46,400 nt of DNA, from NCBI GenBank assembly GCA_036276695.1, contig DASUOI010000030.1, forward strand, positions 1 through 46,400, given 5' to 3'. Positions 11,453 through 40,318 of the stretch are shown one piece after another; within the stretch, counting starts at the first letter, position 1, and each line of letters starts with the position of its first letter. Both the position numbers and the translations under genes were made by a program. The notes beneath the pieces were generated by a model that ran no database searches, was not told where the DNA came from, and saw only the letters and a program-made list of their open reading frames with translations. The DNA comes from Candidatus Saccharimonadales bacterium (GTDB taxonomy: Bacteria > Patescibacteriota > Saccharimonadia > Saccharimonadales > 2-12-FULL-41-12).

Positions 11453-12235
11453 ATGAAAGATTTGTTGGATGACGTTATTAAAATTGCCCGGGAAGCCGGA
11501 AAAGCCATCATTGAAATATATAATTCCGATGAGTTCGAGGTAGAAAATAAAGACGACAAAGGCTACATCTCCCCGCTGACCCAAGCCGACAAAGCTTCTC
11601 ACGAAGTCATCCAGGCAGGCTTATCAAACATCTCAGAGTACCCGATAATCTCCGAAGAAGGGGCGCAGGACTTCCAGACTGCGGACAAATTCTGGTTAGT
11701 TGACCCGATGGATGGTACTAAGGAGTTTATTAGCCGAAACGGCGAATTCACAGTAAATATTGCTCTGGTCGAAAACGGCCAGCCTGTATTAGGGGTGGTC
11801 TATGCACCGGCTTTAAATACCCTCTACGCTTCAGCGGACGGCAAAGCGTTTAAGATTGACTCTAGAGACAACAAAACAGAGCTAAAGCCTGACCCAAGCA
11901 AAAGAGACACACCTAAGATAGTGGTCAGCAGAAACCATAAAGGGGAGCAGCTAGCCGAAATCCTTAGCCAGTTCGGCCCGCATGAGGAAACAGACGTCGG
12001 CTCTTCACTAAAATTCTGTTATCTGGCTGAAGGCAAAGCCCAAGCATACCCCCGGTTCGTACCGACTTATCTTTGGGATACCGCGGCAGCAGACGCCGTG
12101 TTAAGAGCTACCGGCGGACAGATAAGAAGCCTGGACGGCAACAATCTGGTTTACGAACCCGGCGAGAATATAAAAAATCCGTTTTTTATAGCTACAGCAA
12201 GCGGCCAGGAATACTTGTTCGATAAATTCGTTTAG
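11453..12235 (+). CDS. cysQ: 3'(2'),5'-bisphosphate nucleotidase (PAP phosphatase)
   Basis: 'FWLVDPMDGTKEFISRNGEFTVNIALVENGQPVLGVVYAP' and 'GSSLKFCYLAEGKAQAYPRFVPTYLWDTAAADAV' closely follow the E. coli CysQ signature regions. Confidence 0.85.
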   Translation: MKDLLDDVIKIAREAGKAIIEIYNSDEFEVENKDDKGYISPLTQADKASHEVIQAGLSNISEYPIISEEGAQDFQTADKFWLVDPMDGTKEFISRNGEFTVNIALVENGQPVLGVVYAPALNTLYASADGKAFKIDSRDNKTELKPDPSKRDTPKIVVSRNHKGEQLAEILSQFGPHEETDVGSSLKFCYLAEGKAQAYPRFVPTYLWDTAAADAVLRATGGQIRSLDGNNLVYEPGENIKNPFFIATASGQEYLFDKFV

Positions 12236-14555: not shown

Positions 14556-15419
14556 TCAGTTCTTGGCTACTTCCAGCAAATACTTGCCGTAGCCGGATTT
14601 TTTAAGCGGTTCAGCCAGTTTCAACAGCTGGGCTTTGTCAATGAAGCCCTGCTGGTAAGCGATTTCTTCAATACAGCCTATTTTCAAGCCTTGGCGCTGC
14701 TCTATGACTTGAACATATTGGGCTGCTTGATTCATGCTGACAAAAGTCCCCGTATCAAGCCAGGCGGTGCCTCTATCAAGCAGAACGACATTCAGTTTGC
14801 CCTTTCTTAGGTAGGCATTGTGAATCTCGGTTATTTCAATCTCGCCCCTTGCGCTGGGTTTTACGGATTTAGCTATATCAACCACGTCATTATCGAAGAA
14901 ATAAAGGCCCGGAATCGCATAGTGGGATTTAGGGTCGCTTGGCTTTTCTTCAATTGACTTAACATTGTTATTTGAATCAAATTCAACCACGCCATAGCGT
15001 TTCGGGTCGGAAACCGGATAGCCGAAAATTACTCCTCCGTCAGGGTCGGAAGCAGCCTGTAGTTTCAGCTCAAGGTCAGAGCCATAGAAAATATTATCTC
15101 CTAGTACCATGGCTACCTTCTCACCGTTGATAAAGTCCGCGCCCACTATGAACGCATCTGCCAGTCCGCGGGGTTCATCCTGGACCTTGTACGTAAAATT
15201 ACAGCCTATTTGCTCTCCGCTGCCCAGTAATTGTTCGAATCTAGGCAAATCCTGGGCTGTGGAGATAATTAATATATCTTTGATTCCAGCGCTCATCAAA
15301 GTGCTGAGCGGATAGTAAATCATGGGCTTGTCATAAATAGGAATAAGCTGTTTGCTGACTGCCAGTGTTATGGGATACAGGCGCGTACCGCTTCCGCCTG
15401 CTAATATTATTCCCTTCAT
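14556..15419 (-). CDS. rfbA: Glucose-1-phosphate thymidylyltransferase
   Basis: '[35 protein letters not shown]' is the canonical RmlA N-terminus. ATGA overlap with rmlD. Confidence 0.96.
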
Positions 15420-16272
15420 TTTTTACGCTCCTTCTCAATATATTTTACTAGATCGTCCTGCCAGCTTGGCGGATTAAACCCTGTGCTCTTGATTTTACTA
15501 AGGTCAAACGCACTGTTTAACGGTCTGGGCGCCGCGTCTTTTTTAGAGACGAAATATTCTTCCGTGGTTATGTCGTTAACTACCAAGTCTTTTCTGTCTA
15601 GGACTTCGAAGATAGTTCTGGTAACTTCAGCCCAGCTTGCCGGCGGACCGTCATTGCTGACGTTATAGATGCCATAAGCCTCCTTACGACTTAGCAGATG
15701 GTCGATAGCCTGCACCACGGTAGAAGTAAAAGTCAGCCGGCCGACTTGGTCGCTTACTACTTTGGGCGAGATGTTTTTTTCGGCTAGGCCCATCATCGTT
15801 TTGACGAAGTTCGGCCCATTACCGATAAGCCACGATGTACGCAAGATATAGTGTTTGCCGGCTGTGGCTATAGCTACATCGCCCGCGGCTTTGCTCTGGG
15901 CGTAAACCCCTAGGGGCGAAAGCGCCTCATCTTCAGCGTGTTCTTTTTCCTGCCCGTCAAAAACATATTCCGTAGAGACATGAACTATGGTGATGTCATT
16001 CTTATCAGCTATCTTAGCTAGAAGCCCCGCTGAACTGGCGTTTATAAGCCAGGCTAATTTGCGTCCCTCGCTGGTCTCGGCCTCGTCAACATTGGTATAT
16101 GCTGCGGCATTGATGATAATCTCTACATCCGACCAGTCAAACTCACTCAGCTGTTTTGCATCAGTTATATCCAGCTCGTTTTTATCAACAGCTTTAGCTT
16201 TAGGGTATTTTGACTGTAGCTCCGAGCCGAGCTGGCCATTAGCGCCGATTATCAATATTTTTGACTGGTCCA

Positions 16273-16273
<1 letters not shown>
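15416..16273 (-). CDS. rfbD: dTDP-4-dehydrorhamnose reductase
   Basis: '[11 protein letters not shown]' Rossmann motif, 'AAYTNVD', and 'STEYVFDG' with 'YAQSKAAGD' (YxxxK). The ATG at 16273 abuts the rmlC TGA. Confidence 0.92.
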
Positions 16274-18359
<2,086 letters not shown>

Positions 18360-19251: not shown

Positions 19252-20883
19252 TCAGCTTTGAGCCTCAAGGTAGCCTTCGCTCTCTAGGTGTAGGACTATC
19301 TGGTTGGCTAACTCGTCAACATCATATTTCTGCGTGTCCAAAGTAATGTCCGCGTCAGCCGGTTCTTCATACGGGTCGGATATGCCAGTGAAGTGTTTTA
19401 TCTTTCCTGCTCTTGCCGCTTTATATAACCCTTTTCTATCGCGCCTTTCACACTCTTCTAACGAAGTATCTACATGCACCAGCAGAAAGCCTCCACCGAC
19501 TGACTGGATAGTTTGTTTTATTTCTTTTCTGACCTTGTCATACGGCGCAATCGGCGCGCATATGGCTATCCCGCCATGTTTGGATATCTCGCTGGCCACA
19601 TAGCCTATCCTGCGCACATTGATATCCCGATCTTTTTTAGAAAATCCTAATTCGCTGGATAAATTCTTACGCACTACATCCCCGTCCAGCAAGGTAACTG
19701 TGCGACGTCCCAGCTCCATCAGCTTGACCATCACGGCATTGGCTACCGTAGACTTGCCGGCCCCAGAAAGACCGGTGAAGAACACTGTGAAGCCTTTCTC
19801 ATATCTTGGTTTATGTGTCTTTTGTAGTTCTACCGCTACTTCCGGATAAGTAAACCAGCTCGGCAGGCCCTTGCCGTCTGAAAGCAAGGCTCTCAGTTCT
19901 GTTCCTGATAGGCTCATAGGCTCCATGCCCTCTGGCACTTCTTCTATAGGCATGTATCTCTCAAGCTCTCTTACGTAAACCATCATCTTAAACGGCACCA
20001 CTTCAACGCCGACTTCCTTGCTGTATTTTTCTGCCAATTGCTGAGCGTCATATGGGCCGTAAAAATCCTCGCCCTTAGAGTTTTTGCCCGGTCCGGCATG
20101 GTCACGCCCAACTATAAAGTGAGTCACTCCATAATTTTTGCGAATTATCATATGCCATAGCGCCTCCCTTGGCCCGCCCATGCGCATAGCTAACGGGAGC
20201 AGGGATATCATGGCCGTACCCTGCGGGAACTTTTTTATAACTTCTTGGTAGACCCTCACTCGGGTGTAGTGGTCCACATCTCCCGGTTTGGTCATGCCGA
20301 CGACCGGGTGTATAAGCAAGCTTGCCTCCGTTTGTTTTGACGCCCGTAGAGCCAGCTCTACGTGCGCCCTGTGCATAGGATTCCTTGTCTGAAAGGCAAC
20401 TATTTTTGTCCACCCCATTTTCTTAAAGTGCTCTTTTAGCTGTTTAGGAGTGTAGCGGTGTTCGGTAAAGTCATAATGCGTAGGTAGCTCTTTAGCTTCC
20501 AGCTTCCCGCCTACGTAATACTCCCCGGCTTTATTCTTCATGTAGTACACGGCTGGGTGGGCTTCGTCATCTGCTCCAAATACTTGTTCGGCTTCTTTGG
20601 ATTTATCCGGCTTCCACACATCTCCAACCGTCAGGATTGCTAGAACTATCCCTTCTTGGTCACGCAGTTCTACTTTATCGTTCTTTTTTAGGGACTTGGC
20701 TGTTTGCACGTTTACGTCAAGTGTTATCGGCATCGGCCAGAGCTTGCCGCTTTTAAGCCGCATATCTTTACAGACGGATTCATAATCTTCTTTGTTCAAA
20801 AAACCTTCCAACGGTGCAAACCCTCCGTTGGTTATCATTTCAACATCACAAATTTGTCTAGGCGTTAAACTGATTTCTTTCAC
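19252..20883 (-). CDS. Bifunctional sulfate adenylyltransferase / adenylylsulfate kinase (PAPS synthase, Sat-CysC fusion)
   Basis: GTG start with AGGAG upstream. ATP-sulfurylase motifs are 'FQTRNPMHRAHVEL', 'HPVVGMTKPGDVDH' and 'IVGRDHAGPG'. The C-terminal APS kinase has the P-loop 'FFTGLSGAGKSTVA' and 'LDGDVVRKNLSSELGFSKKDRDINVRRIGYVA'. Confidence 0.92.
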   Translation of the reverse strand: MKEISLTPRQICDVEMITNGGFAPLEGFLNKEDYESVCKDMRLKSGKLWPMPITLDVNVQTAKSLKKNDKVELRDQEGIVLAILTVGDVWKPDKSKEAEQVFGADDEAHPAVYYMKNKAGEYYVGGKLEAKELPTHYDFTEHRYTPKQLKEHFKKMGWTKIVAFQTRNPMHRAHVELALRASKQTEASLLIHPVVGMTKPGDVDHYTRVRVYQEVIKKFPQGTAMISLLPLAMRMGGPREALWHMIIRKNYGVTHFIVGRDHAGPGKNSKGEDFYGPYDAQQLAEKYSKEVGVEVVPFKMMVYVRELERYMPIEEVPEGMEPMSLSGTELRALLSDGKGLPSWFTYPEVAVELQKTHKPRYEKGFTVFFTGLSGAGKSTVANAVMVKLMELGRRTVTLLDGDVVRKNLSSELGFSKKDRDINVRRIGYVASEISKHGGIAICAPIAPYDKVRKEIKQTIQSVGGGFLLVHVDTSLEECERRDRKGLYKAARAGKIKHFTGISDPYEEPADADITLDTQKYDVDELANQIVLHLESEGYLEAQS

Positions 20884-25268: not shown

Positions 25269-26075
25269 ATGGGTTTTAGATTTCAAAAAAAATCAAAAGA
25301 TAGTAAGCAAGCACAGGCGCCGATTATTATTTATGGCCCGCCTCGTTCCGGTACCACATATCTGGGAGAAATAGTCAGCCAGCATCCGGAAGTATTCATC
25401 TCCAATGAATATCGAATTTTCACTTGGCTGCACCAATCAACTCATGTTTTGCCCGACATTGACGATATGGTCCTACACTCCCGCAAAGGATTCAAAAAAT
25501 TTATAGATAAAGAAGTGCCCCCTTTGATAAGAAAGTTTTATGCACAAAAACATCCGCACATTAAATACTGGGGCGATAAAAACCCTTTCTACGGAGGAGA
25601 CATCGGGCGGCTTAGAACCATTGCCGAATATTTTCCCGATGCAAAATTCATTAATATTGTTCGCGACGGCCGGGATGTCGTGACTTCGTTAATGAATAAA
25701 AAATGGGAAGACGGCCGACCTTGGGCAGATTTCGACACGGCCCACCAAGTCTGGAACAGCAACATAAAAAACGGACTGGAATTTGCTAAAGAAGCTAAAA
25801 AGAAAAACCATTATCTTATTAAATATGAAGATTTGGTTAAAGATGATTTAAGCGAAGCTAAAAAAATCTTTAAATTTCTAGAGATAGATTGGCGCAAACC
25901 TGTTGAAAAATACTGCCTTCAGCAACAAAAAGAACGAACTATTGTGAGCAAGCCTGTAAGGGACATCCGTAAAGATGCTGGCGCCTCCCTGTGGGCAGAT
26001 AAACTTACAAAAACCCAGCAAAAAAAGAGTATGTCTTTACTAAAAGAGAATCTGAAGAACCTAAAATACTTGTAA
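25269..26075 (+). CDS. PAPS-dependent sulfotransferase
   Basis: 5'-PSB loop 'IIIYGPPRSGTTYLGE' and 3'-PB motif 'INIVRDGRDVVTSL'. Length is 268 aa. Confidence 0.8.
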   Translation: MGFRFQKKSKDSKQAQAPIIIYGPPRSGTTYLGEIVSQHPEVFISNEYRIFTWLHQSTHVLPDIDDMVLHSRKGFKKFIDKEVPPLIRKFYAQKHPHIKYWGDKNPFYGGDIGRLRTIAEYFPDAKFINIVRDGRDVVTSLMNKKWEDGRPWADFDTAHQVWNSNIKNGLEFAKEAKKKNHYLIKYEDLVKDDLSEAKKIFKFLEIDWRKPVEKYCLQQQKERTIVSKPVRDIRKDAGASLWADKLTKTQQKKSMSLLKENLKNLKYL

Positions 26076-28314: not shown

Positions 28315-28857
28315 ATGTCAAAAACAAAAATAATAATACTATCGATTGTAGCCCTAGCTCTCTTAGGCGGAGGGGTGGCGGCTTATTACTATAGATATGT
28401 TGATAAAGATAAAGCCGAAACTGCAGACACGACGCATAATGATAATATCAATTACTCTCCTCCGACAGAGCAGGAAAAAAAGGAAACCGAAGAACATAAA
28501 AAATCCCTTGCAGAAGATAAGGCTCCAACAAATAATCCTACCGGCAATAGTCCAAGTACCAAGAAAAGTGTAACACCAGTCATAGTCTCTTACGGACAGG
28601 CTTCCGGTAATGTGGAGGTAAGCGCTAGAGTTCCGGGAGTCATTGAGTCAAACGGCACCTGTAAATTAACTTTAACTAAAGGTTCCGACAGCGTATCCCA
28701 AAGCAAGAAAGCCACGCCTAACGCCTCTGATACCAGCTGCGGATTTATATCCATACCGCGCAGTAAGTTAAGTTCTGGTTCATGGTCAGCTAAAGTCAGT
28801 TATTCTTCTTCTAAGGCAGAGGGGGTATCGGCCGCCAAAACGATAAAGGTACAATAA
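28315..28857 (+). CDS. Membrane-anchored extracytoplasmic protein with an S/T/P/K-rich linker and a beta-rich 2-Cys C-terminal domain; unknown function
   Basis: The ATG at 28315 gives 'MSKTKIIILSIVALALLGGGVAAYYY' (signal anchor). The linker is 'SPPTEQEKKETEE...APTNNPTGNSPSTKKSVTP'. I recognise no family. Confidence 0.5.
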   Translation: MSKTKIIILSIVALALLGGGVAAYYYRYVDKDKAETADTTHNDNINYSPPTEQEKKETEEHKKSLAEDKAPTNNPTGNSPSTKKSVTPVIVSYGQASGNVEVSARVPGVIESNGTCKLTLTKGSDSVSQSKKATPNASDTSCGFISIPRSKLSSGSWSAKVSYSSSKAEGVSAAKTIKVQ

Positions 28858-28861
28858 GCAT

Positions 28862-30574
28862 ATGGTAAAAAAAGTCCGCCTACTACTCATCACAGCTCTG
28901 GTTTCTGTCTTATCTTTAGGCGGTTTATTTGTCTTCGTAGAACCTGCTACATCCTCGGCTTTGTCTGGCAGTAAGTTCAGGGCCGGACAAATCATAGACG
29001 ATAATGTTTTCTTTAGAAAACAAACGATGAGCGCCAGCCAGATACAGGCGTTTTTAAACAGCAAGGTCCCGGTTTGTGATACAAACCATCCTAAAACCTC
29101 AAGTTCAAAAGATTCAGGACCACCTTATACATGCCTCAAGTCTTATAGAGATGACATCAAGTCCAAGCCTGCAGAATCGGGCCTGTGCGATGCACTTAGC
29201 GCCCAGTCTAATCAGCTGGCATCTGTAATTATCTACAAAGTCGGTAAGGCCTGCGGCGTCAGCCAGAAAGCCCTGCTTGTACTTCTGCAAAAGGAGCAAA
29301 GCTTGGTAACTGACACTTGGCCGTGGGACATTCAATACAGAAGCGCTACCGGCTACGGTTGCCCTGACAGTGCGCCTTGCGACAGTGAATATTACGGTTT
29401 CTTTAACCAAGTATATAAAGCCGCCTGGCAATTTAAACGCTACGCTAAATTTCCGAATTCATATAACCACAAGAAAGGCTTCACCAGCTTTGTCCAATAT
29501 CACCCCAATGCCGGGTGCGGTGGTAAGAATGTCAATATGAAAACTAAAGCCACTGCGGGACTTTATAACTATACCCCTTATACGCCAAATCAAGCCGCTT
29601 TAAATAACTTATACGGTACGGGAAATAGCTGTAGCGCTTATGGAAATCGCAACTTTTGGAGAATGTATAACGACTGGTTTGGCAGCCCTTATAAGAAGCT
29701 TAATTACAGACTTATAGAATGTGAGGGTGAGAAATATATGGTTGAGAGATGGAAGCCGCGAAAGAGACCGCTTACGGATAATGCTGTGCGTGAATTCGGT
29801 TTTGAAGAATATGAGTTCAACACAGATGATCGTGGTTGTGATTATCCAGCTTATTCAAACGCATTGGACACTATTGTCCGCTCCAGAGATTCAATAAAGA
29901 GCTACATGCTTAATTCAGGAAGTTATCATTACCTACAAAGCAGGTCTGTAGCCCACGCCTGGGGATATGTTGATATTTACGATAATAGAGACCTGAAACC
30001 ACGGCTGGACGGCGACACCATAGATGATTTTGAACTTCCAGGCAAAACTCCGCGTCTAGCAGAGTCTGCAAATACCGGCAAAGTTTATTTACTTAGCGAA
30101 GGCAAAATTTACCATATAAGTGGTACGCCCTCCTCAGTGGCAACTTTAAGGTTAGTGAGAGGCAACGGTAACATACCAATGAAAACTTTCTCTGGCGAAC
30201 ATTTAAGCTACCTTAAGACTAACAATGGCGAAGGCGTCAGTATTGTTTCCGGGTTCCGCGTCAATGAATCTGCATGGTATCTTTTTGACTACGGGAAGGT
30301 CAGAAGAGTCAGTACTATGCATTATCCCAACAGGTGGAATGTCTCTGGCGTGTTTGAAGGTCCCGATCTGGCTTCAGACACAGCAAAGTACTTTAACCCG
30401 CGCGAAGGCTTAGGCAAAGGCTTCCGCAAAGGAGACAGCTATTACATAGTCGCTTCAGGTGGAGATGTATTGTCCACAACTAACTTCCCTACGGCTTACC
30501 GTTGGGGCGTCACTAAAGAGGTTGAGGTTACAAACTTATTTAAAAACAACGTGCAGACGCTGAACTCACCATAG
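28862..30574 (+). CDS. Secreted protein with a conserved Cys-containing N-terminal domain and C-terminal beta-hairpin-like repeats; unknown function
   Basis: N-terminal signal or TM segment. 'FRAGQIIDDNVFF...MSASQIQAFLN' and 'LLVLLQKEQSLVT...GYGCPDS.PC...YYGFFNQVY' form a module I recall from uncharacterised Gram-positive wall-associated proteins. The C-terminus has repeated 'GKVYLLSEGKIYHIS', 'AWYLFDYGKVRRVS' and 'DSYYIVASGGDVLS' units. Confidence 0.5.
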   Translation: MVKKVRLLLITALVSVLSLGGLFVFVEPATSSALSGSKFRAGQIIDDNVFFRKQTMSASQIQAFLNSKVPVCDTNHPKTSSSKDSGPPYTCLKSYRDDIKSKPAESGLCDALSAQSNQLASVIIYKVGKACGVSQKALLVLLQKEQSLVTDTWPWDIQYRSATGYGCPDSAPCDSEYYGFFNQVYKAAWQFKRYAKFPNSYNHKKGFTSFVQYHPNAGCGGKNVNMKTKATAGLYNYTPYTPNQAALNNLYGTGNSCSAYGNRNFWRMYNDWFGSPYKKLNYRLIECEGEKYMVERWKPRKRPLTDNAVREFGFEEYEFNTDDRGCDYPAYSNALDTIVRSRDSIKSYMLNSGSYHYLQSRSVAHAWGYVDIYDNRDLKPRLDGDTIDDFELPGKTPRLAESANTGKVYLLSEGKIYHISGTPSSVATLRLVRGNGNIPMKTFSGEHLSYLKTNNGEGVSIVSGFRVNESAWYLFDYGKVRRVSTMHYPNRWNVSGVFEGPDLASDTAKYFNPREGLGKGFRKGDSYYIVASGGDVLSTTNFPTAYRWGVTKEVEVTNLFKNNVQTLNSP

Positions 30575-30619: not shown

Positions 30620-31591
30620 ATGAGTTCAAACCACCCGACTGTTTCCATTGTTGTATTAAACTGGAATGGCAAAAAGTTTATTGATCCTTTTGTTGAATCT
30701 TTTAAGAAGCTCAATTACCCTTCGGATAAACTTGAGTTAATATTTACTGACAATGATTCGTCTGATGGTTCGGTTGAGTATATAAAGAAAAAATATAAAA
30801 GCCTAAAACAACTTAAGGTTATTCAAACTGGCGGAAATTACGGTTACGCAGGCGGTAATAACCGTGGTATGAAGCATGCCACAGGAGATTATGTCCTGGT
30901 TTGCAATAACGACCTCATACTTGACCCTAAGCTTGTAGATGAGCTTGTGAAAGAAGCTAAGTCAAAGTCATCCGCTATTACCGTGCCTAAGCTTATGTTT
31001 TTAAACAAGCCGGGCTATATAAACAATGCCGGGTCTATGCTTGAAGCAAATAACATCTGGCCTGTTAAAGAAAGAGGCTTTGACCAGAAAGATTCAAAAG
31101 AGTTCGAGAAAACGGTAGAAATAACCGCTTTTTGCGGGGCCTGTGTGCTGTTTGAGCGCAGATTTCTTGAGGATGTCGGTTTGTTCGATGGCAAGTTCTT
31201 TATGTATTTTGAAGATGGAGATTTATCATGGCGCGGTCAAAAATCGGGGTATAAATATTACATTGCCCCAAAAGCGCTTGCCTTTCACGAACATACCGGT
31301 ACAAGCAAGGAAGGATCGCCTCTTTTTAACTACTATGTGGGGAGAAACCGCTTGTTGATACTGATGAAAAATGCTAAGTTTAGAGTCGTTTTCAAAGCTT
31401 GGCTGGTCGTACTGCACAACCAGTTGTATGTAAAAGTTAGAAAGTTTCTACGCTCTGTCATACGAAAAAATAACCGCAAAGAAAACGGAAAGGACCTCTT
31501 GTTGGGAATTAAAGTAGTAGCCTCCGCCCTTCTTTTTGCGCCATATTGTTATCTAAAGCGCTGGAAACTACTCCCTGAGGAAAAACTATGA
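30620..31591 (+). CDS. GT2 glycosyltransferase (rhamnosyltransferase-like, WbbL-type)
   Basis: 'VSIVVLNWNGKKF', 'TDNDSSDGS', 'NYGYAGGNN' and 'FMYFEDGDLSWR' fit the GT2_7-type pattern. Confidence 0.85.
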   Translation: MSSNHPTVSIVVLNWNGKKFIDPFVESFKKLNYPSDKLELIFTDNDSSDGSVEYIKKKYKSLKQLKVIQTGGNYGYAGGNNRGMKHATGDYVLVCNNDLILDPKLVDELVKEAKSKSSAITVPKLMFLNKPGYINNAGSMLEANNIWPVKERGFDQKDSKEFEKTVEITAFCGACVLFERRFLEDVGLFDGKFFMYFEDGDLSWRGQKSGYKYYIAPKALAFHEHTGTSKEGSPLFNYYVGRNRLLILMKNAKFRVVFKAWLVVLHNQLYVKVRKFLRSVIRKNNRKENGKDLLLGIKVVASALLFAPYCYLKRWKLLPEEKL

Positions 31592-32796
31592 AGAAAATCG
31601 GTATTTATAACGAGTACATAGACGCAAAAGGTGGTGGCGAGAAAGTCTGTCTTGCTTTGGCTGAAGCTCTTTCCAAGAAATATGATGTTAGTATTGTCTC
31701 CCCTAAGGAAGTTAATCTTGATGAGCTAGAAGAATATTTTAATCTGGATTTAAGTAAAGTTAAGCTGGATGTTATATCAAGAAGAACCTTAACGGCAAAA
31801 ATTGTAGACAGGTTGTTATTACCGGGTGGTTTGAAGGCATTAATAAAAGACTACAGATATTTTAAGATCATCAAACAGAAAAACTTTGATATTTTTGTAA
31901 ATAACACTCATCAAAGCAACCTACCAAACCCAGCTAACAAAGGCATATACATGTGTATGTTCCCTCAGAGACTGGAGGGAGAACCAACTGACAATACAAT
32001 TAAAAAAATTTATAGATTTTTTATAAGAATGCTTTATAGAGTCTTTTTATTTAAAGGACGTAGGCATGCCATAGATACATATGATCTTATTACAGCCAAT
32101 TCTAAATATACCCAAGGTTATATAAAAAAATACTGGAACAAAAAGAGTGAAATCCTCTACCCTATTTGCGATTCCATGAAAAATAGTGAAAAAAAGCAAA
32201 AGATAATACTAAATGTAGGCAGGTTCTTCGGTGATAGAGACTTAGTGCACCATAAAAGACAGGATTTTTTATTAAAGTCTTTCATAGAATCTGATCTGCA
32301 TAAGTTAGGCTGGGAACTACATTTTGCTGGGAGCGTAGAAGAAAACGCCAAAGCCCTGAAATATATACTTGATTAGCAAAAAAAAGCTAGAGTGTATCCC
32401 GTTTATTTTCATTTTGACTGTTTCTACAGTGAACTCAAGTCACTATTTAATAAGGCCTTTATATATTGGCATGCTACAGGTTATGGTTCCGACCCTGATG
32501 AATACCCGGAAAAGCAAGAACATTTTGGAATAACCACCGTAGAGGCAATGTCTGCCGGTTGTATACCCGTAGTTATTGATTCCGCCGGCCAGCAGGAAAC
32601 CGTGAGCCATGCAGAAAACGGATTCCTCTGGAATAGTAAAAACGAGTTGATCAAATACACTAAAAAAGCTATTAATTTAAACGCTCCTGAAGCTAAGAAG
32701 ATTCACGGCAACGGCCAAACCGTAGTGAAAAAATTTAACAAGGACACGTTCACAAAAAACACGGAAGGTATATTTTCAAAACTGACTAGAACTTAA
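31588..32796 (+). pseudogene. GT4 glycosyltransferase interrupted by one in-frame TAG (32374-32376), either a pseudogene or a split gene
   Basis: ORFs 31588-32376 and 32392-32796 are in the same frame. The N-terminal half has 'IGIYNEYIDAKGGGEKV'. The C-terminal half has 'EHFGITTVEAMSAGCIPVVIDSAGQQETVSHAENGFLW' (EX7E). Together they make one complete GT-B enzyme of about 400 aa. Confidence 0.7.
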
Positions 32797-33637
32797 AGTC
32801 TACTCTGGGTCTTGCGCCTTTTGCCACATACACATATTTAAGTATGGTTCTTTTTGAGGCGCCGCATTTGTTTGTGCAGGTCGCCGTAATTCTATATCTC
32901 TGTTTGGCGCTTCCACACTGCCCGGCCGCCAGATTAATAATTTTGTAGTAATTCTTGCTACCGCCACTAGTAAGCTTGCTGGCAGATGCAGAGAAGCCTT
33001 GGACACCGCATGCTGAACCTGCTAAGTACGGAAAAGCGCGGAATTTGAGATTTGAGGGGTTAATAGCCTTATTTTTGTATCTAACGTAGCCGTTTACATC
33101 TCCTGTGTTGCCATTATATGTAAACGATGTGGGCAAGCGCATAGGAAAATTATTGATCACCCCTGCTTTGACTTTTCTGTTGTGGTCAGCCGCTCCGCCC
33201 AAATATGTATAGTTCGTTGCCCCGTTCTCATCCTTCGGATAAACTTCAATCCACGCTGTTTTAACTTTTGATGAAACACACAGCCCATAGGTTTGGTCGA
33301 GTACTGTAGCAGATCCCGGCTGAGAGAGACTTGGATTTACCGTGATCGTGTGTGAATATCCGGAAGTTGTTTTGCGATTGCCGGCAGGGCCAACTTTCTT
33401 TTTGTTGGAATTTAAAAGGTCAATGCCGATAAAGGCTTTGGTCGACCAGTTATTATAGTCGCCACCGTAAGCCTTTATTGATCCTCTTATTGCCGTGGGC
33501 CTGGAGGAAGAGCATCCTGAAGCAATAGCTGTTACTTTACCCGTACTATTGTTAACAGCCACTAGTAAAGAAGCTGTAAAGATGAAAATGGTGCCAGTAA
33601 TTAGAATTTTTGTTTTTGTAATGTTTAGTTTTTTCAT
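32786..33637 (-). CDS. Secreted Cys-containing beta-rich protein, unknown function
   Basis: The N-terminal signal or anchor is 'MKKLNITKTKILITGTIFIFTASLLVAV'. There are 9 Cys residues, and the sequence is rich in G/S/T/N/K/Y. I recognise no family. Confidence 0.5.
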   Translation of the reverse strand: MKKLNITKTKILITGTIFIFTASLLVAVNNSTGKVTAIASGCSSSRPTAIRGSIKAYGGDYNNWSTKAFIGIDLLNSNKKKVGPAGNRKTTSGYSHTITVNPSLSQPGSATVLDQTYGLCVSSKVKTAWIEVYPKDENGATNYTYLGGAADHNRKVKAGVINNFPMRLPTSFTYNGNTGDVNGYVRYKNKAINPSNLKFRAFPYLAGSACGVQGFSASASKLTSGGSKNYYKIINLAAGQCGSAKQRYRITATCTNKCGASKRTILKYVYVAKGARPRVDFKF

Positions 33638-33699: not shown

Positions 33700-34626
33700 T
33701 CATTTTCCATCTATACCTAAATATCTTCTAACTTTGTGATATTTATCTCGTGCTTTCCAAAACTTTGATTGTTTCATAAGAGTAATTTCTCTTTCAAGAG
33801 TCTTTATCCTATCTAATGCATGATTGTTCGAATTTTTTAGTTCATTTCGCTTTTTTAGCAATATCTCATTTTTGTTTTGTATTTTTACAAATAATTGATT
33901 TATTGGTTCAAGTGATTTCATCGCCTCCGGATATTTTTTGTAGTATTTTTCATATATGTAAATTCTTGCATCTAGGGCTTGTTTGAATGGGAAGTCTACA
34001 TCGGAGCGACTTCGGGGTTGATTATGTTTTTTATAGTGAAGGACGGGCCCAGTCATTTTTCTTGCAGTCTTGCCGGATAAACAAGCGCCAAGAAAAAGAT
34101 CCCAATCCTCGTAGCCTAAACTCTCTAGAACCTCGTCGTATTTATTCGTAGAAAATACAGTTTTTTTTACTAATGCTGATGCGTGTATGTAGTTTTGGTA
34201 TTTCAAAATTTCTATATTGTGTTCAGGATGATAAACTTTTCTGTTTACTCTCCCAAAGATTATTACGTCACTATAAACAATGTCGGCATTGCTATCTTCA
34301 GCTAAGTTCACAGCCTTTTCCACATAGGAATTGTCAATCCAGTCATCTGCGTCCAGCTGGATTAAATAATAGCCTTTAGCTAGGTTGACACATTTGTTTC
34401 TGGTTTTCACTATACCCATATTTTTTTGTTTGTGATAATAAACGTTCTGATACTCCGAAGAGTATGTTTTTGCCACCGATTCAGTATCATCTGTTGAACC
34501 GTCGTCGATAATTATTATTTCAATATTTTTATATGTTTGAGCGATTACGCTATCTATTGCTTTTGGCAATAAATTTCCGTAGTTGTAGCATGGTATTATT
34601 ACTGAAACTAATTTACTATGTGACAT
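33700..34626 (-). CDS. GT2 glycosyltransferase with a C-terminal coiled-coil tail
   Basis: 'VSVIIPCYNYGNLL', 'IIIDDGSTDDT' and 'QLDADDW' (DxD) are present. The C-terminus 'NELKNSNNHALDRIKTLEREITLMKQS' is coiled-coil-like. Confidence 0.85.
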   Translation of the reverse strand: MSHSKLVSVIIPCYNYGNLLPKAIDSVIAQTYKNIEIIIIDDGSTDDTESVAKTYSSEYQNVYYHKQKNMGIVKTRNKCVNLAKGYYLIQLDADDWIDNSYVEKAVNLAEDSNADIVYSDVIIFGRVNRKVYHPEHNIEILKYQNYIHASALVKKTVFSTNKYDEVLESLGYEDWDLFLGACLSGKTARKMTGPVLHYKKHNQPRSRSDVDFPFKQALDARIYIYEKYYKKYPEAMKSLEPINQLFVKIQNKNEILLKKRNELKNSNNHALDRIKTLEREITLMKQSKFWKARDKYHKVRRYLGIDGK

Positions 34627-34632
34627 AAGTTA

Positions 34633-35463
34633 ATGGTTCTTACGAAATTATACAATAGACACTTTAGAAAACCTCTTAAACTATACTGGTGGAAATACAA
34701 TCCACCAGCTCAATTAAACTTTGGTGATGAACTCACTCCGGTAATAATAGAATCATTATTTGGCAGACATTGCATATGGTCTCCCCCGGAAGAATGCAAC
34801 ATGGCGGGAGCAGGCTCTATTATTGAAATACTGCTAAAAAAGAAAAGGGGAAATAAACCTATTTTATGGGGTAGTGGTTTTATAAAGAAAGATAGTGTCA
34901 CTATTTCTTCAGACGATTTCAATATAAAAGCCCTGCGAGGTAAATCTTCTTTAGAAAGAACTGTGAATATTAATCAAAAAGCTGTTGCTTTAGGTGACCC
35001 AGGATTATTGGCTAGTTATTTACTACAGTCAAAACCGGAGAAAAAATATCGTCTTGGCATAGTACCCCACTATGTAGATTTGGAATCACCCACAGTTAAA
35101 GAGCTGTCTCGGCAAAAAAACGTAAAAATCATTAGTCCTCTTAACCCTCCAGAGGAAGTTATTCATGATATTGCTGCAAGTGAGTGCGTTGTCTCATCCA
35201 GCCTACATGGTTTAATAGCGGCCGACAGTGTAGGTACGCCAAATGCCCACCTAAAGCTAAGTGATGGCCTGACAGGTGGACTATACAAATTCAAAGATTA
35301 CTATTCTGTCTTTTCCGGACCTTCAAGATACATATTGTTGCAGCCTGATGATGTGCTAGATAAACAGGCTGAAGCTGTTGCCCAAAACGTAGAACGGCTT
35401 TATAAGAAACCTAATAATTTGGATTCTTTAAAACAAGACCTGATAAAATCGTTCCCCTACTAA
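34633..35463 (+). CDS. Polysaccharide pyruvyl transferase family protein (second copy, short CsaB/EpsO-like type)
   Basis: 'QLNFGDELTPVIIESLFG', 'GAGSII', 'LWGSGF' and 'VVSSSLHGLIAADSVGTPN' fit the PS_pyruv_trans pattern. Confidence 0.65.
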   Translation: MVLTKLYNRHFRKPLKLYWWKYNPPAQLNFGDELTPVIIESLFGRHCIWSPPEECNMAGAGSIIEILLKKKRGNKPILWGSGFIKKDSVTISSDDFNIKALRGKSSLERTVNINQKAVALGDPGLLASYLLQSKPEKKYRLGIVPHYVDLESPTVKELSRQKNVKIISPLNPPEEVIHDIAASECVVSSSLHGLIAADSVGTPNAHLKLSDGLTGGLYKFKDYYSVFSGPSRYILLQPDDVLDKQAEAVAQNVERLYKKPNNLDSLKQDLIKSFPY

Positions 35464-35505: not shown

Positions 35506-36366
35506 TCATGGTAATTTAAGGGGGGCACCGTTTATAAGTATTGACCTTATTATGTAAAATTTCCATCCAATTTTCTTGCCTAACAATTTTTTCATTTTTT
35601 TTAAAATATTAGGCTTCGAAACTCTACTTGTGAAAAAATCATCGTGTCTATATCCAAGCTTTTTATTACAATCGTACTGAGCCCTATCAGTAGTTGTTGC
35701 TCGTTGAGCAGGACTTAGCTTTGACCAAACTCCTTCTTCCGTGTAGTTGTATACCGACATAATCTCGTCATGATAATATAGAGGACCTTTATCTAAAAAT
35801 GAGTAGAAAGTTATAGTGTCTCTTATTATAGGATTTTTATTAAAATCTATAACTCGTCTATACACTCTTGAGGAAGTGTGAAGGTGTCGTGGATTATCAG
35901 CAAATGTTACGGGATTCTTAAGTTTAACTTTATATATATCGTGAACCAATGAACGTTGCTCGCCCGTATGTACGTAATTAAAGAGCGTGTCATGGGCAAA
36001 CATAACATACTCCGGGTTCTTTTCCATAGTATCAATAGCAAGTTGTATTTTGTTCTTGTGGCACCATCTGTCATCACCATCAAGAGTAGCAAAATATCTA
36101 GTTTTAATTCTTTTCCTGGCCTCTAATATATGTTTTCTTTTTGTATTTTTTGGTTGTGAAATTACTTTTATTATTTTAGGGTGGCCGTCTTCGTATTTCT
36201 TGCAAATTTCTAAAGTTTTATCAGTTGAACAATCATCTAAGATCCAGACTTTGTATGGATAAGATGTTTCTTGCTCAAGTATGCTTTCTATAGCTTCGGC
36301 GATTGAATTTTCGTGATTATAAGTAAGCAACAAGATTGTTAAGATTGGGTTTTCTTCTTTTTTCAT
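35506..36366 (-). CDS. GT2 glycosyltransferase
   Basis: 'LTILLLTYNHENSIAEAIESIL', 'WILDDCSTDKT' and 'ATLDGDDRW' (DxD) are present. Confidence 0.8.
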   Translation of the reverse strand: MKKEENPILTILLLTYNHENSIAEAIESILEQETSYPYKVWILDDCSTDKTLEICKKYEDGHPKIIKVISQPKNTKRKHILEARKRIKTRYFATLDGDDRWCHKNKIQLAIDTMEKNPEYVMFAHDTLFNYVHTGEQRSLVHDIYKVKLKNPVTFADNPRHLHTSSRVYRRVIDFNKNPIIRDTITFYSFLDKGPLYYHDEIMSVYNYTEEGVWSKLSPAQRATTTDRAQYDCNKKLGYRHDDFFTSRVSKPNILKKMKKLLGKKIGWKFYIIRSILINGAPLKLP

Positions 36367-36415: not shown

Positions 36416-37288
36416 TTATATTCTATAACCAAAAGTCTCTAACATCTTTCCGGCAATATTATTGAATTCTTGTATTTGTTGTTTATTCAGCTCTTTTTTA
36501 TATTTGCCGATATTGGTTTTGTCAGGCTTCTCAAGGGTTTTTCTTTTCCAGTCGATTGTACTAATCGGTTCATCCTCGTATCTAGCATTATGTATATAAT
36601 ATTCAAACATTCCTTTTTCGAATTCGATTTTTAGAAATGAACATACGTTCTTTAAGGTTTGTTCAGGATGCAATATTAAGTCTTCATATTTAATAAGCAA
36701 ACTTCTATCTCTAGAAAGTTTCTGGATAAAATCTTGTACTCTTTGATTATTAGTTGTCCACTCTTTTGCTATATTATTAATTTTGGTGGGTAATTTAGGC
36801 TTATAAGGCGAATCAGTGCTTATTTTATTTAGAGTAATGTAAGAACATGCGACATCTCTACCGTCCCTCACCATAAAAATAATTTTTGCATTGGGCCATA
36901 TTTTAACTAAGTCGTCTAAGTGATATATAAAATAGTTATTTTTATCGGCAATAATTTTAGAATTTTTACCTCTTCTCATGGCATAGGTTGAGTAAACTAG
37001 TTCAGTTAAGTGAGAATAGTCTTTAGGTTTTTCTTTTAAGATTATCTTTTTAAGTTCTTCAAAATCCAGCTTCCAGTTTTCAATTTTTTTTGATGTTTTA
37101 AGGTCACTTAGAAACTCTTCTACTCTAAATTTTGTATTGCTCAATTTATTCCAATTATTGTATTTATTGGACCACCAATGTAAAAAACCAGACTCTGGTG
37201 GTGCAATAACCTCCGAATGTGAATTAAGCATCAGTCTGAACAAGGAGGTACCAGAACGGGGGTTGCCAATTATAAACACTTTTTGCAT
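36416..37288 (-). CDS. PAPS-dependent sulfotransferase (second copy)
   Basis: 5'-PSB loop 'VFIIGNPRSGTSLFRLML' and 3'-PB motif 'IIFMVRDGRDVACSY'. The gene lies 13 nt downstream of the DegT gene. Confidence 0.8.
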   Translation of the reverse strand: MQKVFIIGNPRSGTSLFRLMLNSHSEVIAPPESGFLHWWSNKYNNWNKLSNTKFRVEEFLSDLKTSKKIENWKLDFEELKKIILKEKPKDYSHLTELVYSTYAMRRGKNSKIIADKNNYFIYHLDDLVKIWPNAKIIFMVRDGRDVACSYITLNKISTDSPYKPKLPTKINNIAKEWTTNNQRVQDFIQKLSRDRSLLIKYEDLILHPEQTLKNVCSFLKIEFEKGMFEYYIHNARYEDEPISTIDWKRKTLEKPDKTNIGKYKKELNKQQIQEFNNIAGKMLETFGYRI

Positions 37289-37301
37289 TATTGCTGCTTT
37301 T

Positions 37302-38387
37302 TCATGATTTCAATATTTCGCAGATTTTATTGATTATACTTTCTTCTAGGTCTTCAAATAAAGGAAGGCATAGGATTTTTTTTGATATGTCTTCGGAAAT
37401 GGGACAATCTTGTACTTTGTCAATATAAGGCAATGTATTTAACGACGGATAAAAATACCTTCTCGGGAATATGTTTTCGTTTTTTAGCTTATTAAGAATA
37501 TCTAGCAATTTTTCTTCACTCTCCAATACGACCGGGTAGTAAGCAAACGTATATTCTGTTTCTTTATTAAGCTTTGGTCTTTGCATCTGATTAGAGATAA
37601 GCTTGTTGTAAATCTCAATTTTTTCTTTTCTTTTCTGTATATTTTCCTCGATGTACTTTAGGTTGCAAAGTCCCATGGCAGCTTGGTACTCGGATGCTTT
37701 TGCATTAATCCCTAATCTATAATGATCGTCTCCAATATGACCAAATTTTTTTATCAATTCTATTTCATCGCTAATTTTTTTATCTTTAGCTATAACACAC
37801 CCGCCCTCTATTGTGTGAAACCTTTTTGTGGAATGAAAACTACATATAGAAATATCCCCGTGACTTAAGAGGGGTTTATTTTTGTACTTAACCCCAAAAG
37901 CGTGCGCCCCATCATAAATAATTTTTAGATTGTGCTTTTTTGCAATTTTATCTATCGCTTCGATGTCACAGGGGTTGCCAAAAACATGTACTGGCAGAAT
38001 TGCTTTGGTTTTTTCGGTAATTGCAGCTTCGATTTTGTCAGAATCGATACAAAGTGTTTCAGGATCTATATCTACATAAACCGGCTTAGCACCCTCCCAA
38101 AGTATGGCTGATGTTGTTGCTACGTAAGAAAATGGGGTGGTAATAACTTCGCCCTCGGTTATATCAAGTGATCTTAGGGCTAACTGCAAAGCTATAGTTC
38201 CATTTGTAACAAAATGGAAATTTTCTACATCTAAATATTCTGAGGCTTCTTTCTCAAATTCTTTTAGAAGTGGTCCATGGTTAGTAAGCTGGTTGTTTTG
38301 CCATATTTTTTTTAGATAAGAATTATATTCCTCTATTGGGGGCAGAAAAGCCTTTGTGACATTGATTCTTTCAGATTTATGATCCAT
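37302..38387 (-). CDS. DegT/DnrJ/EryC1/StrS-family PLP-dependent sugar aminotransferase
   Basis: 'FVTNGTIALQLAL', 'ILPVHVFGNPCD' and 'SFHSTKRFHTIEGGCV' (PLP-Lys) are present. The gene overlaps the wzt stop by 11 nt. Confidence 0.88.
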   Translation of the reverse strand: MDHKSERINVTKAFLPPIEEYNSYLKKIWQNNQLTNHGPLLKEFEKEASEYLDVENFHFVTNGTIALQLALRSLDITEGEVITTPFSYVATTSAILWEGAKPVYVDIDPETLCIDSDKIEAAITEKTKAILPVHVFGNPCDIEAIDKIAKKHNLKIIYDGAHAFGVKYKNKPLLSHGDISICSFHSTKRFHTIEGGCVIAKDKKISDEIELIKKFGHIGDDHYRLGINAKASEYQAAMGLCNLKYIEENIQKRKEKIEIYNKLISNQMQRPKLNKETEYTFAYYPVVLESEEKLLDILNKLKNENIFPRRYFYPSLNTLPYIDKVQDCPISEDISKKILCLPLFEDLEESIINKICEILKS

Positions 38388-39519
38388 ATTCCCACGTATC
38401 CTTAAGTTTTAAAGCGCCTCCCCTTCGATTTTCTTTTCCTTCAACAATAAACATTCTCCTGTCATTTGCTTTAACAACTGCAAGCTGCGAACGGTTGTCT
38501 AAGTTAAACAAGCCGCCTCCTATAGCATAAGTTCCTGGGTTCAATACATTTTTATCAATTGTAAATTCCAAAAGACCTGAATTGCTTAAAGGTTTATTTT
38601 TCGCCGTGCTTATTCCGCCTATATATATCCCGTCTTTCCAGATTGATAGGCTAACAAAACATTTATTTTTTGTACTTTTATATTCAGCACATGCTTTTAA
38701 AATCTCATTATTTTCTTCTTTGATGGAATATTTTATTTTGTTTTTCGTAGAATCATCACTTTTGTCATTATTTGCTTGTTCAATATTATCAATAAGATAA
38801 ACATCCGCGACTTTGTAGGTTTCACCTTCTTTATTAATTTTCCCTTCTTTCAAATATATGGCTCTCGTACAGAAACGCTTGACTTGCTCCATACTATGGG
38901 AGACGAGAACTACAGTACGACCTTTTTGTTTTAGCTCTTCAAAGTAACTAAAACATTTTTCTTGGAAGCTTGAATCCCCCACAGCAAGCACTTCATCTAA
39001 TACTAATATGGGCGAGTCAACCTTAGCTGCTATAGAGAATGCAAGCCTGACCTGCATACCTGAAGAATAGTTTTTGAGCTTCTGGTCCATAAACTTCTCA
39101 ATTTCGGCGAACTCTACAATCTCGTCATACATAGCTTCCATCTCTTGTCTAGAGAATCCAAGCAACGCTCCATTTAGAAATACGTTTTCCCTGCCCGTTA
39201 ACTCAGGATTGAAGCCCACACCTAACTCAATAAACGGTGTGAGCTTACCATTTACTTGTATATTACCTTTGTCAGGAGCATATATGCCCGCTATGAGCTT
39301 TAGCAGCGTGCTCTTACCGCTACCATTTTTACCGACTATACCGAAGAATTCACCTTTTTTAATATCCACAGAAACGTTTTTTAAGACTTCTTGTTTTTCA
39401 TAAGTTCGTTTCTTGCGAAACCCATTAATAAATAAACTTTTAATGGAACCGTGCTTTTCATGAGGCAGCTTAAAAGACTTGCTGACATTATGTACCTTGA
39501 TCGCTATATCCTCACTCAT
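38377..39519 (-). CDS. Polysaccharide/teichoic-acid ABC exporter ATP-binding protein (Wzt/TagH-type) with a ~140-aa C-terminal extension
   Basis: Walker A 'GIVGKNGSGKSTLL', signature 'YSSGMQVRLAFS' and Walker B 'ILVLDEVLAVGD'. The beta-rich C-terminal domain (aa ~240-380) is consistent with a Wzt_C-like glycan-binding module. Confidence 0.85.
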   Translation of the reverse strand: MSEDIAIKVHNVSKSFKLPHEKHGSIKSLFINGFRKKRTYEKQEVLKNVSVDIKKGEFFGIVGKNGSGKSTLLKLIAGIYAPDKGNIQVNGKLTPFIELGVGFNPELTGRENVFLNGALLGFSRQEMEAMYDEIVEFAEIEKFMDQKLKNYSSGMQVRLAFSIAAKVDSPILVLDEVLAVGDSSFQEKCFSYFEELKQKGRTVVLVSHSMEQVKRFCTRAIYLKEGKINKEGETYKVADVYLIDNIEQANNDKSDDSTKNKIKYSIKEENNEILKACAEYKSTKNKCFVSLSIWKDGIYIGGISTAKNKPLSNSGLLEFTIDKNVLNPGTYAIGGGLFNLDNRSQLAVVKANDRRMFIVEGKENRRGGALKLKDTWEYGS

Positions 39520-39520
39520 A

Positions 39521-40318
39521 TCAAATATCCTCCGCGAAATTGCCGGCTTGTTTTTTGAAGTAAAGCACTCCGATTACCAACAACACTATAGGTATGGCTA
39601 TAGGTATCAGCCTATAGATGCTTGAGCCGTATACCCCATAAATCGTCAGGGTCTCGTGGGTAACAACAGAATATCTGGCATCTTGGATTGACTGGGCCAT
39701 GGGACTTAATATGAGCACTTTCTGAAAAGCTTCAGGCACTAAATTAAGCGGATAAAGTATGGGCGTGGCATAAAATCCTGCTTGAAGAACAACTTCCCAT
39801 ATGTATTTAACATCCCGGAACTTTACAAAAGCCGTAGCTAAGATAAGCGACATTCCTAAGCCCAGTATGTAAACTTCCAGTAATATTAGAGGAAGCCATA
39901 GAGCTGTTTGTAGCAGATCAATCTTTACTATAATAATAAAAATAAGAACCACTATTAGATTGAAGCCTAGGTTGATGAGTGCAGATATACTACTGGAAAC
40001 GACTATCAACCATCTGGGTATGCGTATTTTTCTAATCAGACTTCCTCTGCTGACAATCGAACCCAGGCTCTGGTTAGTCATGTCGGAAAAGAAAGCCCAA
40101 AGAACAATTCCAAGCAACAAATAGATAGCGAAGTTTGGTATGCCCTGGCCAAGCTTTAAGAATTTATCAAAAACTATATAGAGTACAGAAAATAAAAGAA
40201 GAGGTCTTAGAAGCGACCATAGATAACCAAGAACCGAGCCTTGGTAGCGCAGTTTAAAGTCTGTCCGGACAAGTTCAGCAAGTAATACTCTGCTTTCTTT
40301 TCTTAATGGGTTCGTCAT
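39521..40318 (-). CDS. ABC-2 type polysaccharide exporter permease (Wzm/TagG-type)
   Basis: 265 aa with 6 TM helices. The N-terminus 'LVRTDFKLRYQGSVLGYLWSLLRPLL' is the canonical ABC-2 polysaccharide-permease motif. Confidence 0.88.
   Translation of the reverse strand: MTNPLRKESRVLLAELVRTDFKLRYQGSVLGYLWSLLRPLLLFSVLYIVFDKFLKLGQGIPNFAIYLLLGIVLWAFFSDMTNQSLGSIVSRGSLIRKIRIPRWLIVVSSSISALINLGFNLIVVLIFIIIVKIDLLQTALWLPLILLEVYILGLGMSLILATAFVKFRDVKYIWEVVLQAGFYATPILYPLNLVPEAFQKVLILSPMAQSIQDARYSVVTHETLTIYGVYGSSIYRLIPIAIPIVLLVIGVLYFKKQAGNFAEDI

Follow-up and report, generated by a model that had tools for sequence, protein, structure and literature searches.

A conserved aminotransferase-sulfotransferase gene pair in a Saccharimonadales glycan locus and the sulfated amino sugar it may build

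The gene pair and its operon

The stretch of DNA considered here, called the window, comprises 46,400 nucleotides from a Candidatus Saccharimonadales bacterium (assembly GCA_036276695.1, contig DASUOI010000030.1, positions 1 to 46,400). It carries a glycan locus in which a gene for a DegT-family sugar aminotransferase is directly followed by one for a sulfotransferase (ST) predicted to use 3'-phosphoadenosine-5'-phosphosulfate (PAPS). These two genes form the nucleus of a mobile sugar-modification cassette, usually completed by a glycosyltransferase (GT), that is widely conserved and probably builds a sulfated amino sugar. The operon that contains them has the following features:

39521..40318, minus strand: wzm, ABC-2 type polysaccharide export permease, first gene of the operon (PF01061, E 3.6e-15)
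38377..39519, minus strand: wzt/tagH-like export ATPase (PF00005, E 1.5e-23)
37302..38387, minus strand: DegT-family sugar aminotransferase dependent on pyridoxal phosphate (PLP), 361 amino acids (aa) (PF01041 DegT_DnrJ_EryC1, E 1.7e-93)
37289..37301, minus strand: 13-nt spacer from the DegT stop codon (TGA) to the ST start codon (ATG)
36416..37288, minus strand: PAPS-dependent sulfotransferase of the TPST/CurM-ST/NodH type, 290 aa (PF13469 Sulfotransfer_3, E 3.7e-36)
35506..36366, minus strand: GT2 glycosyltransferase, presumed transferase of the modified sugar (PF00535, E 8.4e-24)

The identities of the two central genes and the 13-nt distance between them, as proposed in an initial annotation, are borne out. 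DegT matches PF01041 over the full length with 314 bits (cut-off 19.8; profile positions 5-359 of 360), and the ST matches PF13469 with 126 bits (cut-off 27). The ST also matches PF00685 (Sulfotransfer_1) with an E value of 2.4e-18. The genes are tightly packed: the end of wzt and the beginning of the DegT gene overlap by 11 nt, and the GT2 gene starts 49 nt 3' of the ST gene. No terminator-like site was found between DegT and ST, in a promoter and terminator scan that performed at chance level and is uninformative.

The Wzm permease and Wzt ATPase genes (38377-40318) are contiguous with DegT and lie in the same operon as the glycosyltransferases, the arrangement by which a glycan pathway dependent on an ATP-binding cassette (ABC) transporter is recognized. 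Against the NCBIfam models for teichoic-acid and galactan export ATPases the ATPase scored 192-220 bits, under their cut-offs. Its residues ~245-380 form a C-terminal extension of ~135 aa that has no Pfam match and is not Wzt_C; this could be a domain recognizing the finished or capped glycan.

The same annotation reported that no N-acyltransferase is encoded in the 46 kb, and profile searches agree. Pfam was run on 58 window open reading frames (ORFs) of at least 80 aa, made up of all plausible genes and the ten longest shadow ORFs, and none matched the left-handed beta-helix (Hexapep/LbH), GNAT/Acetyltransf or Formyl_trans families at E <= 0.01. Nor did phmmer searches with LbH seeds against all six-frame segments of at least 40 aa return any match at E <= 1. 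A lone HxSxLP formyltransferase-like motif in the window is a chance match within a GT4 gene.

Conservation of the cassette across bacteria

The ST belongs to a tight group of proteins of ~290 aa that share 40-60% identity. Relatives occur in 488 of 185,579 genomes, one genome per species, and a profile search of 1.84 billion protein representatives returned 908 clusters at E <= 1e-30. The genomic loci examined were the best 80 of these 488 species genomes, corresponding to ~78 non-redundant loci. A DegT gene lies directly upstream of the ST gene in 61 of them by ORF calls and in ~66 by tblastn. The adjacency is far beyond chance, with at least 61 of the ~78 non-redundant loci of other genomes showing it. 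The spacing has a median of 0 nt over the 61 loci (longest-ORF calls), and DegT lies within 6 kb of the ST in all informative loci but one (L059, where none occurs in the available 10 kb upstream and 3 kb downstream). The cassette DegT orthologs are 47-54% identical to the window protein. The loci come from Bacteroidota, Balneolota, Acidobacteriota, Verrucomicrobiota, Pseudomonadota, Desulfobacterota, Nitrospirota, Chloroflexota, Planctomycetota and Marinimicrobia, to which one Firmicute (Firmicutes) and, with the window, the Patescibacteria are added, or about ten phyla overall. What had been treated as a peculiarity of one locus is instead a widespread mobile cassette.

The genes around the pair vary. 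The ST is followed, depending on the locus, by a GT2 (GT2d), a GT56 or a GT1-like glycosyltransferase. The protein cluster of the window GT2 (35506-36366) is present in 51 of 82 loci and stands directly 3' of the ST in 37. Export also differs, with Wzm/Wzt in ~28 loci and a Wzx flippase in ~20; orthologs of the window Wzm were found in 27 related loci. In Idiomarina zobellii, Vibrio breoganii, Marinobacter and Salegentibacter, rmlB-rmlA directly precede the pair. The pair in Idiomarina aquatica and Halomonas sp. M20 is preceded by small ORFs only and is not followed by a gene on the same strand. DegT is thus the sole constant partner of the ST across polymers and export routes, which fits a constant small substrate such as a sugar linked to deoxythymidine diphosphate (dTDP). 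A role of sulfate as chain terminator in the ABC pathway is rejected, since the cassette also occurs in Wzx/Wzy loci.

The lack of a linked N-acyltransferase extends beyond the window. Of the 48 complete loci, in which 6 kb or more is available on either side of the ST, just 10 contain an LbH gene within 6 kb of it, as counted by phmmer from Pfam-confirmed LbH seeds. GNAT and Formyl_trans are rare, and neither is among the 25 families most often matched in a Pfam census that covered 185 representative neighboring proteins. A regular-expression screen for hexapeptide repeats was over-permissive (305 "hits") and was discarded in favor of these two approaches. Absence of a linked N-acyltransferase is therefore the rule for the cassette, to which the window is no exception, and the placement of the ST where an N-acyltransferase usually stands, first noted for the window alone, proves to be a conserved rule of the gene pair. 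The cassette otherwise resembles VioA/VioB, Per/PerB, QdtB/QdtC, WecE/WecD and PglE/PglD: a DegT-family enzyme acts on a nucleotide-linked keto-sugar and is translationally coupled to a modifier of the amine, the same RmlA/RmlB supply is used, and a dedicated glycosyltransferase follows. In contrast to those systems, the coupled enzyme is a PAPS sulfotransferase rather than an LbH, GNAT or formyl transferase, and both the window and ~79% of related loci are without an acyltransferase.

The long matches to the ST profile are either tandem ST repeats or an ST joined to an unrelated C-terminal domain. Four of them (P0357, P0482, P0467 and P0486) contain two to four tandem ST domains of a related subfamily and reach 1298 aa. 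P0427 and P0464 each join the ST to an unrelated C-terminal domain, which in one of the two contains a GDSx (SGNH-like) motif.

The amino sugar and the site of sulfation

Residue conservation was assessed over 60 aligned cassette orthologs. In DegT, the Schiff-base Lys188 (SFHSTK) and the PLP-binding Asp159 are kept in all 60, indicating an aminotransferase rather than a ColD-type dehydratase. Relatives in the PDB of 4-amino and of 3-amino specificity score the window protein alike (E 1e-45 to 1e-52). However, no 3,4-ketoisomerase (FdtA/QdtA) was found among the small ORFs beside DegT, so that a 3-amino sugar is not supported. Those small ORFs proved to be a PD-(D/E)XK nuclease, an insertion sequence (IS) element, a DUF2061 protein and a WbqC fragment. 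Genomic context, with rmlB-rmlA directly before the pair in several taxa, says more about the specificity than do curated models and solved structures, and DegT is predicted to be a dTDP-4-keto-6-deoxy-D-glucose 4-aminotransferase of the viosamine synthase type.

A solved polysaccharide allows the product to be considered more closely. In the synthesis of enterobacterial common antigen, a WecF-type enzyme uses a dTDP-4-amino-4,6-dideoxyhexose as donor and joins its sugar to a uronic acid by an alpha-(1->4) bond. Two I. zobellii assemblies carry the cluster wzz-rmlB-rmlA-DegT-ST-GT56(WecF-like)-wzx-wzy-GT-GT-ST2-...-dehydrogenase-2-epimerase, with DegT 49% and ST 40% identical to the window proteins, two sulfotransferases in all and no N-acyltransferase found. 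The O-polysaccharide of I. zobellii KMM 231T is described as ->3)-a-D-Quip4N-(1->4)-a-D-GlcpA-(1->6)-a-D-GlcpNAc-(1->4)-a-L-GulpNA-(1->3)-D-FucpNAc (PMC3210612). Its 4-amino-4,6-dideoxyglucose (Qui4N) and its GulNA both bear "free" amino groups, and sulfate is unreported in that account (Kilcoyne et al., 2004, in PMC3210612). The match between the WecF-like glycosyltransferase and the Qui4N-GlcA linkage argues that the cassette DegT makes dTDP-Qui4N with its amine un-acylated. From this correlation between genes and structure, the cassette sugar is likely dTDP-4-amino-4,6-dideoxyglucose, left un-acylated. The I. zobellii locus is thus comparable to the window in its rmlB-rmlA-DegT-ST genes and a polymer with an un-acylated 4-amino-4,6-dideoxyhexose. 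It differs in having a GT56 (WecF-like) instead of a GT2 after the ST, in its Wzx/Wzy rather than ABC export and in the unreported sulfate. The link between gene cluster and polysaccharide is correlative.

The number of sulfotransferases in the I. zobellii cluster matches the number of "free" amines in the polymer, which is suggestive. At 16982-18930 of the two loci (L085/L086), the second ST, of 322 aa, is followed by a 332-aa protein that belongs to no Pfam family. Because the L-GulNA must come from N-deacetylation, this arrangement is reminiscent of the logic of the deacetylase/N-sulfotransferases.

The window ST possesses the expected donor-binding motifs: an Arg-type 5'-phosphosulfate-binding (5'-PSB) loop, P10-R11-S12-G13 (PRSGT, residues 10-14), and a 3'-phosphate-binding (3'-PB) motif, R141-D142-G-R144-D145...S149. 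Both PRSGT and RDGRD...S (141-149) are kept in at least 95% of the orthologs. Glu32, a candidate base, is invariant and in the alignment corresponds to the second Glu of CGEE in TPST1, presumably the position of the TPST2 catalytic base Glu99. In all, 37 positions are at least 95% conserved, many of them away from the PAPS motifs, as would suit an acceptor that is small and constant. An AlphaFold2 model of high confidence (predicted local distance difference test, pLDDT, 89.2; predicted template modeling score, pTM, 0.88) was compared with known structures by Foldseek, and its neighbors were TPST1/2 and the ST domains of CurM and OLS, with template modeling (TM) scores of 0.61-0.69. TPST1 matched with an E value of 6e-13 (TM 0.66-0.69) and CurM ST with 3e-12. 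The window ST shares its fold, its PAPS motifs and the Arg-type PRSGT loop with these proteins and with NodH (phmmer E 1e-13 to 1e-16). In contrast, identity is 18-22%, those enzymes O-sulfate tyrosine, a beta-hydroxyacyl group on acyl carrier protein or O-6 of GlcNAc, and none is paired with a sugar aminotransferase. Sequence and fold do not separate N- from O-sulfation.

The pathway can be outlined with the help of two further features of the window, through which both the keto-sugar substrate and the sulfate donor would be supplied locally:

14556..17804, minus strand: rmlA-rmlD-rmlC-rmlB (PF00483, PF04321, PF00908; TIGR01181)
19252..20883, minus strand: bifunctional ATP sulfurylase/adenosine-5'-phosphosulfate (APS) kinase, a PAPS synthase (PF01747, E 5.9e-83; PF01583, E 3.9e-58)

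RmlA and RmlB would produce dTDP-4-keto-6-deoxy-D-glucose, which DegT would aminate at C4 to yield dTDP-4-amino-4,6-dideoxy-D-glucose (dTDP-viosamine, Qui4N). The ST, with PAPS from the PAPS synthase of the locus, would then sulfate the nucleotide sugar in the usual place of the N-acyltransferase, most likely at the C4 amine, giving a sulfamate (4-sulfoamino-4,6-dideoxyglucose). The downstream GT2 would add the modified sugar to a polymer built in the cytoplasm, and Wzm/Wzt would export the product. Because DegT alone accompanies the ST throughout, whatever the polymer or export route, the simplest model has the ST acting on the DegT product; we infer from this that sulfation takes place at the level of the nucleotide sugar.

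Sulfation of the amine is slightly favored over sulfation of a hydroxyl, although this choice is tentative. The gene stands in the position of an N-modifier, no acyltransferase is linked to it, and no other group of the substrate is as good a nucleophile as the amine. Moreover, an O-sulfate on the Qui4N of I. zobellii would be expected to show in the nuclear magnetic resonance (NMR) spectra, whereas a sulfamate is labile to acid and inconspicuous. Mild acid, as used for the release of oligosaccharides, hydrolyses sulfamates. In addition, the sulfamate NH proton exchanges and is hard to see by NMR (PMC5039511). In its full form, the preferred reading is that the pair makes dTDP-4-sulfoamino-4,6-dideoxyglucose, that sulfamate sugars are widespread but overlooked in hundreds of species of about ten phyla, and that published "free amino" sugars such as the Qui4N and GulNA of I. 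zobellii are natively N-sulfated, the group having been lost or missed in acid work-up and NMR. A probability of roughly 0.4 is assigned to it. If it is correct, the ST would resemble N-deacetylase/N-sulfotransferase (NDST) in the PAPS-dependent sulfation of a sugar amine and in a glutamate rather than a histidine as candidate base (E32 here). Unlike NDST, to which it has no detectable specific relationship and which acts on a polymer in the Golgi after deacetylation, the window enzyme would receive its amine from transamination, and its acceptor is probably a nucleotide sugar.

Several results weigh against this interpretation. The nearest solved relatives by sequence and fold (TPST1/2, CurM and OLS ST) are all O-sulfotransferases, and NDST is neither among the 14 PDB sequence hits (E <= 0.01) nor among the top 50 Foldseek matches. 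The best NCBIfam model for DegT is DesI (TIGR04427), at 249 bits against a cut-off of 650 that is not reached. The distances between DegT proteins and between STs correlate modestly in a mirror-tree comparison (Mantel r 0.36, p 0.001), so that no co-evolution is claimed, and no DegT-ST fusion occurs among the long matches to the ST profile. Literature searches retrieved no N-sulfated bacterial glycan, in agreement with the earlier statement that N-sulfation is not established for such polymers; they also retrieved no characterized DegT-sulfotransferase pair. For I. zobellii, base-degraded lipopolysaccharide was analyzed as well, and its amine is given as free (PMC3210612). A sulfamate should survive base degradation, which weakens, without removing, the idea of an acid artefact. 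Finally, O-sulfated amino-dideoxy sugars exist in the genus Idiomarina: the O-antigen of I. abyssalis KMM 227T contains 2-O-sulfo-3-N-(4-hydroxybutanoyl)-Qui3N (Kokoulin et al., 2015, in PMC9695755). This antigen resembles the proposed product as a sulfated amino-dideoxyhexose in a surface polysaccharide of a genus that carries the cassette. It differs in that the sulfate is on O-2 and the amine is at C3 and acylated.

The initial annotation had foreseen two outcomes, a free cationic amino sugar in a zwitterionic polymer or N-sulfation. Both stay live, and the free Qui4N described for I. zobellii supports an un-acylated amine. The same residue makes the premise that such sugars are almost always N-acylated too strong. 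O-sulfation of the amino sugar itself, for which the I. abyssalis residue is a precedent, had been left out and must be added; sequence and fold leave N- versus O-sulfation unsettled. On this alternative, O-2 or O-3 of the same sugar is sulfated, either on the nucleotide sugar or after transfer, and the C4 amine is free (zwitterionic) or acylated by an unlinked enzyme. It is a close contender, rated only slightly below N-sulfation. The characterized relatives all being O-sulfotransferases, with NodH of the same Pfam family O-sulfating a sugar, argues for it, as do the free Qui4N of I. zobellii and the several sulfotransferases in many loci, which imply polymers heavily O-sulfated anyway. However, O-2 is the only free hydroxyl of Qui4N in the I. 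zobellii structure as described, and an O-sulfate there should withstand the work-up and be visible as shifted NMR signals, yet sulfate is unreported. O-sulfation also leaves unexplained the strict dependence of the ST on DegT and its N-acyltransferase position, and a neighboring free amine would compete as nucleophile.

Less probable than sulfation of the DegT product at either site is a different target of the ST, either some other residue of the polymer or a non-glycan acceptor, for instance a protein tyrosine as in the case of RaxST and TPST, the adjacency to DegT reflecting only a shared surface-polysaccharide locus. The fold is closest to the tyrosylprotein sulfotransferases, the loci are mosaic with several STs and GTs, and the modest distance correlation between DegT and ST is consistent with such a role. 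This explanation is nevertheless unlikely: DegT is the one invariant neighbor over about ten phyla, two export pathways and differing sets of glycosyltransferases, the spacing is near zero, and in I. aquatica and Halomonas sp. M20 the pair stands with no same-strand gene downstream. Transient sulfation of dTDP-Qui4N, which would pull transamination forward or protect the amine before removal of the sulfo group leaves the final amine free, is very improbable; it would account for the free amines and unreported sulfate of the I. zobellii polymer, whose gene cluster nonetheless encodes two STs, and it recalls CurM ST, the closest solved relative, which uses sulfate as a transient activating group, and the N-formylation and subsequent deformylation by ArnA/ArnD in the Ara4N pathway, a precedent for transient modification of an amine, but no conserved sulfatase or sulfamidase partner is found among the clusters shared by the loci, the expense in PAPS would be high and the scheme is without precedent.

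If N-sulfation is the true reaction, the product would perhaps be the first sugar of a bacterial surface polymer to carry N-sulfate, and the first equivalent in bacteria of the heparan-type sulfamate. Chemo-enzymatic work would gain a soluble bacterial N-sulfotransferase, and "free amino" sugars described from acid-hydrolysed material would merit a second look. Bacterial glycan sulfation is poorly mapped, and a 2026 paper still calls bacterial sulfated polysaccharides exclusively cyanobacterial. A defined, portable cassette of two or three genes would open a way to sulfated amino sugars in no fewer than 488 species genomes and 908 protein clusters. The question is directly testable in I. zobellii, a cultured type strain with a solved O-antigen.

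Origin of the cassette and other genes of the window

The window was detected in one soil metagenome run. Its G+C content is 46-49% in the flanks but only 32-38% over ~31-40 kb, a shallower decrease setting in at ~20 kb, and the resulting low-G+C island (~20000-41000; 32-42%) spans the glycan locus. The closest named relatives of the ST in genomes are from Flavobacterium (58% identity). By comparison, the best named relatives of the window GlmS are 67-72% identical and mostly from Candidatus Saccharimonadales. Taken together, the island and the Flavobacterium-like ST, set against a Saccharimonadales-like GlmS, suggest that the cassette was gained horizontally by this bacterium of the Candidate Phyla Radiation (CPR).

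Further genes of the window that may bear on the glycan are as follows:

11453..12235, plus strand: CysQ-like 3'-phosphoadenosine-5'-phosphatase, for removal of 3'-phosphoadenosine-5'-phosphate (PAP) (PF00459, E 9.3e-47)
25269..26075, plus strand: second, divergent sulfotransferase (PF13469, E 1.2e-29)
33700..34626, minus strand: second GT2 glycosyltransferase (PF00535, E 9e-35)
34633..35463, plus strand: polysaccharide pyruvyl transferase, accessory (PF04230, E 1.8e-14)

Members of the CysQ-like cluster adjoin the cassette in 11 related loci, and the cluster of the second GT2 is present in 25. The second sulfotransferase is 30% identical to the first (tblastn). The rmlA and rmlB genes lie ~20 kb from the DegT-ST pair. 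RmlB matches TIGR01181 (dTDP-glucose 4,6-dehydratase) with 478 bits (cut-off 365) over residues 85-401; its ORF call (16809-18056) is over-long, the homology beginning at residue 85. Hidden beneath this call is a TagD-like cytidylyltransferase gene (17865-18359, plus strand; PF01467, E 1.1e-10). A second cytidylyltransferase-like gene lies at 4579-5094, and the two hint at a teichoic-acid-like component.

Two pyruvyl transferases are encoded in the window. Such enzymes recur beside the cassette in unrelated taxa (L088, L089, L001, L028, L042 and the window, 34633-35463). Orthologs of the 34633..35463 protein are found in L001, L028 and L042, and the Marinobacter and V. breoganii loci also contain pyruvyl transferases. 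Polymers made where cassette and pyruvyl transferase occur together probably carry sulfate as well as pyruvate groups, which would make them strongly anionic.

Adjoining the second sulfotransferase, at 21912-25239 on the minus strand, are genes for a pyruvyl transferase, an LPG_synthase_TM-like membrane protein and a 393-aa protein of the nitroreductase family. Four sizeable ORFs at 26108-30574 (plus strand) and 32786-33637 (minus strand) belong to no Pfam or NCBIfam family. They encode a 714-aa polytopic membrane protein, two secreted-looking proteins of 195 and 570 aa and a 283-aa protein with a signal-like N-terminus. Finally, a GT4-family glycosyltransferase gene at 31588-32796 (plus strand) is split into an N-terminal Glyco_transf_4 ORF and a C-terminal Glycos_transf_1 ORF by a single in-frame TAG at 32374-32376 (...KYILD*QKKARVY...), and is probably a pseudogene, an assembly variant or a strain variant.

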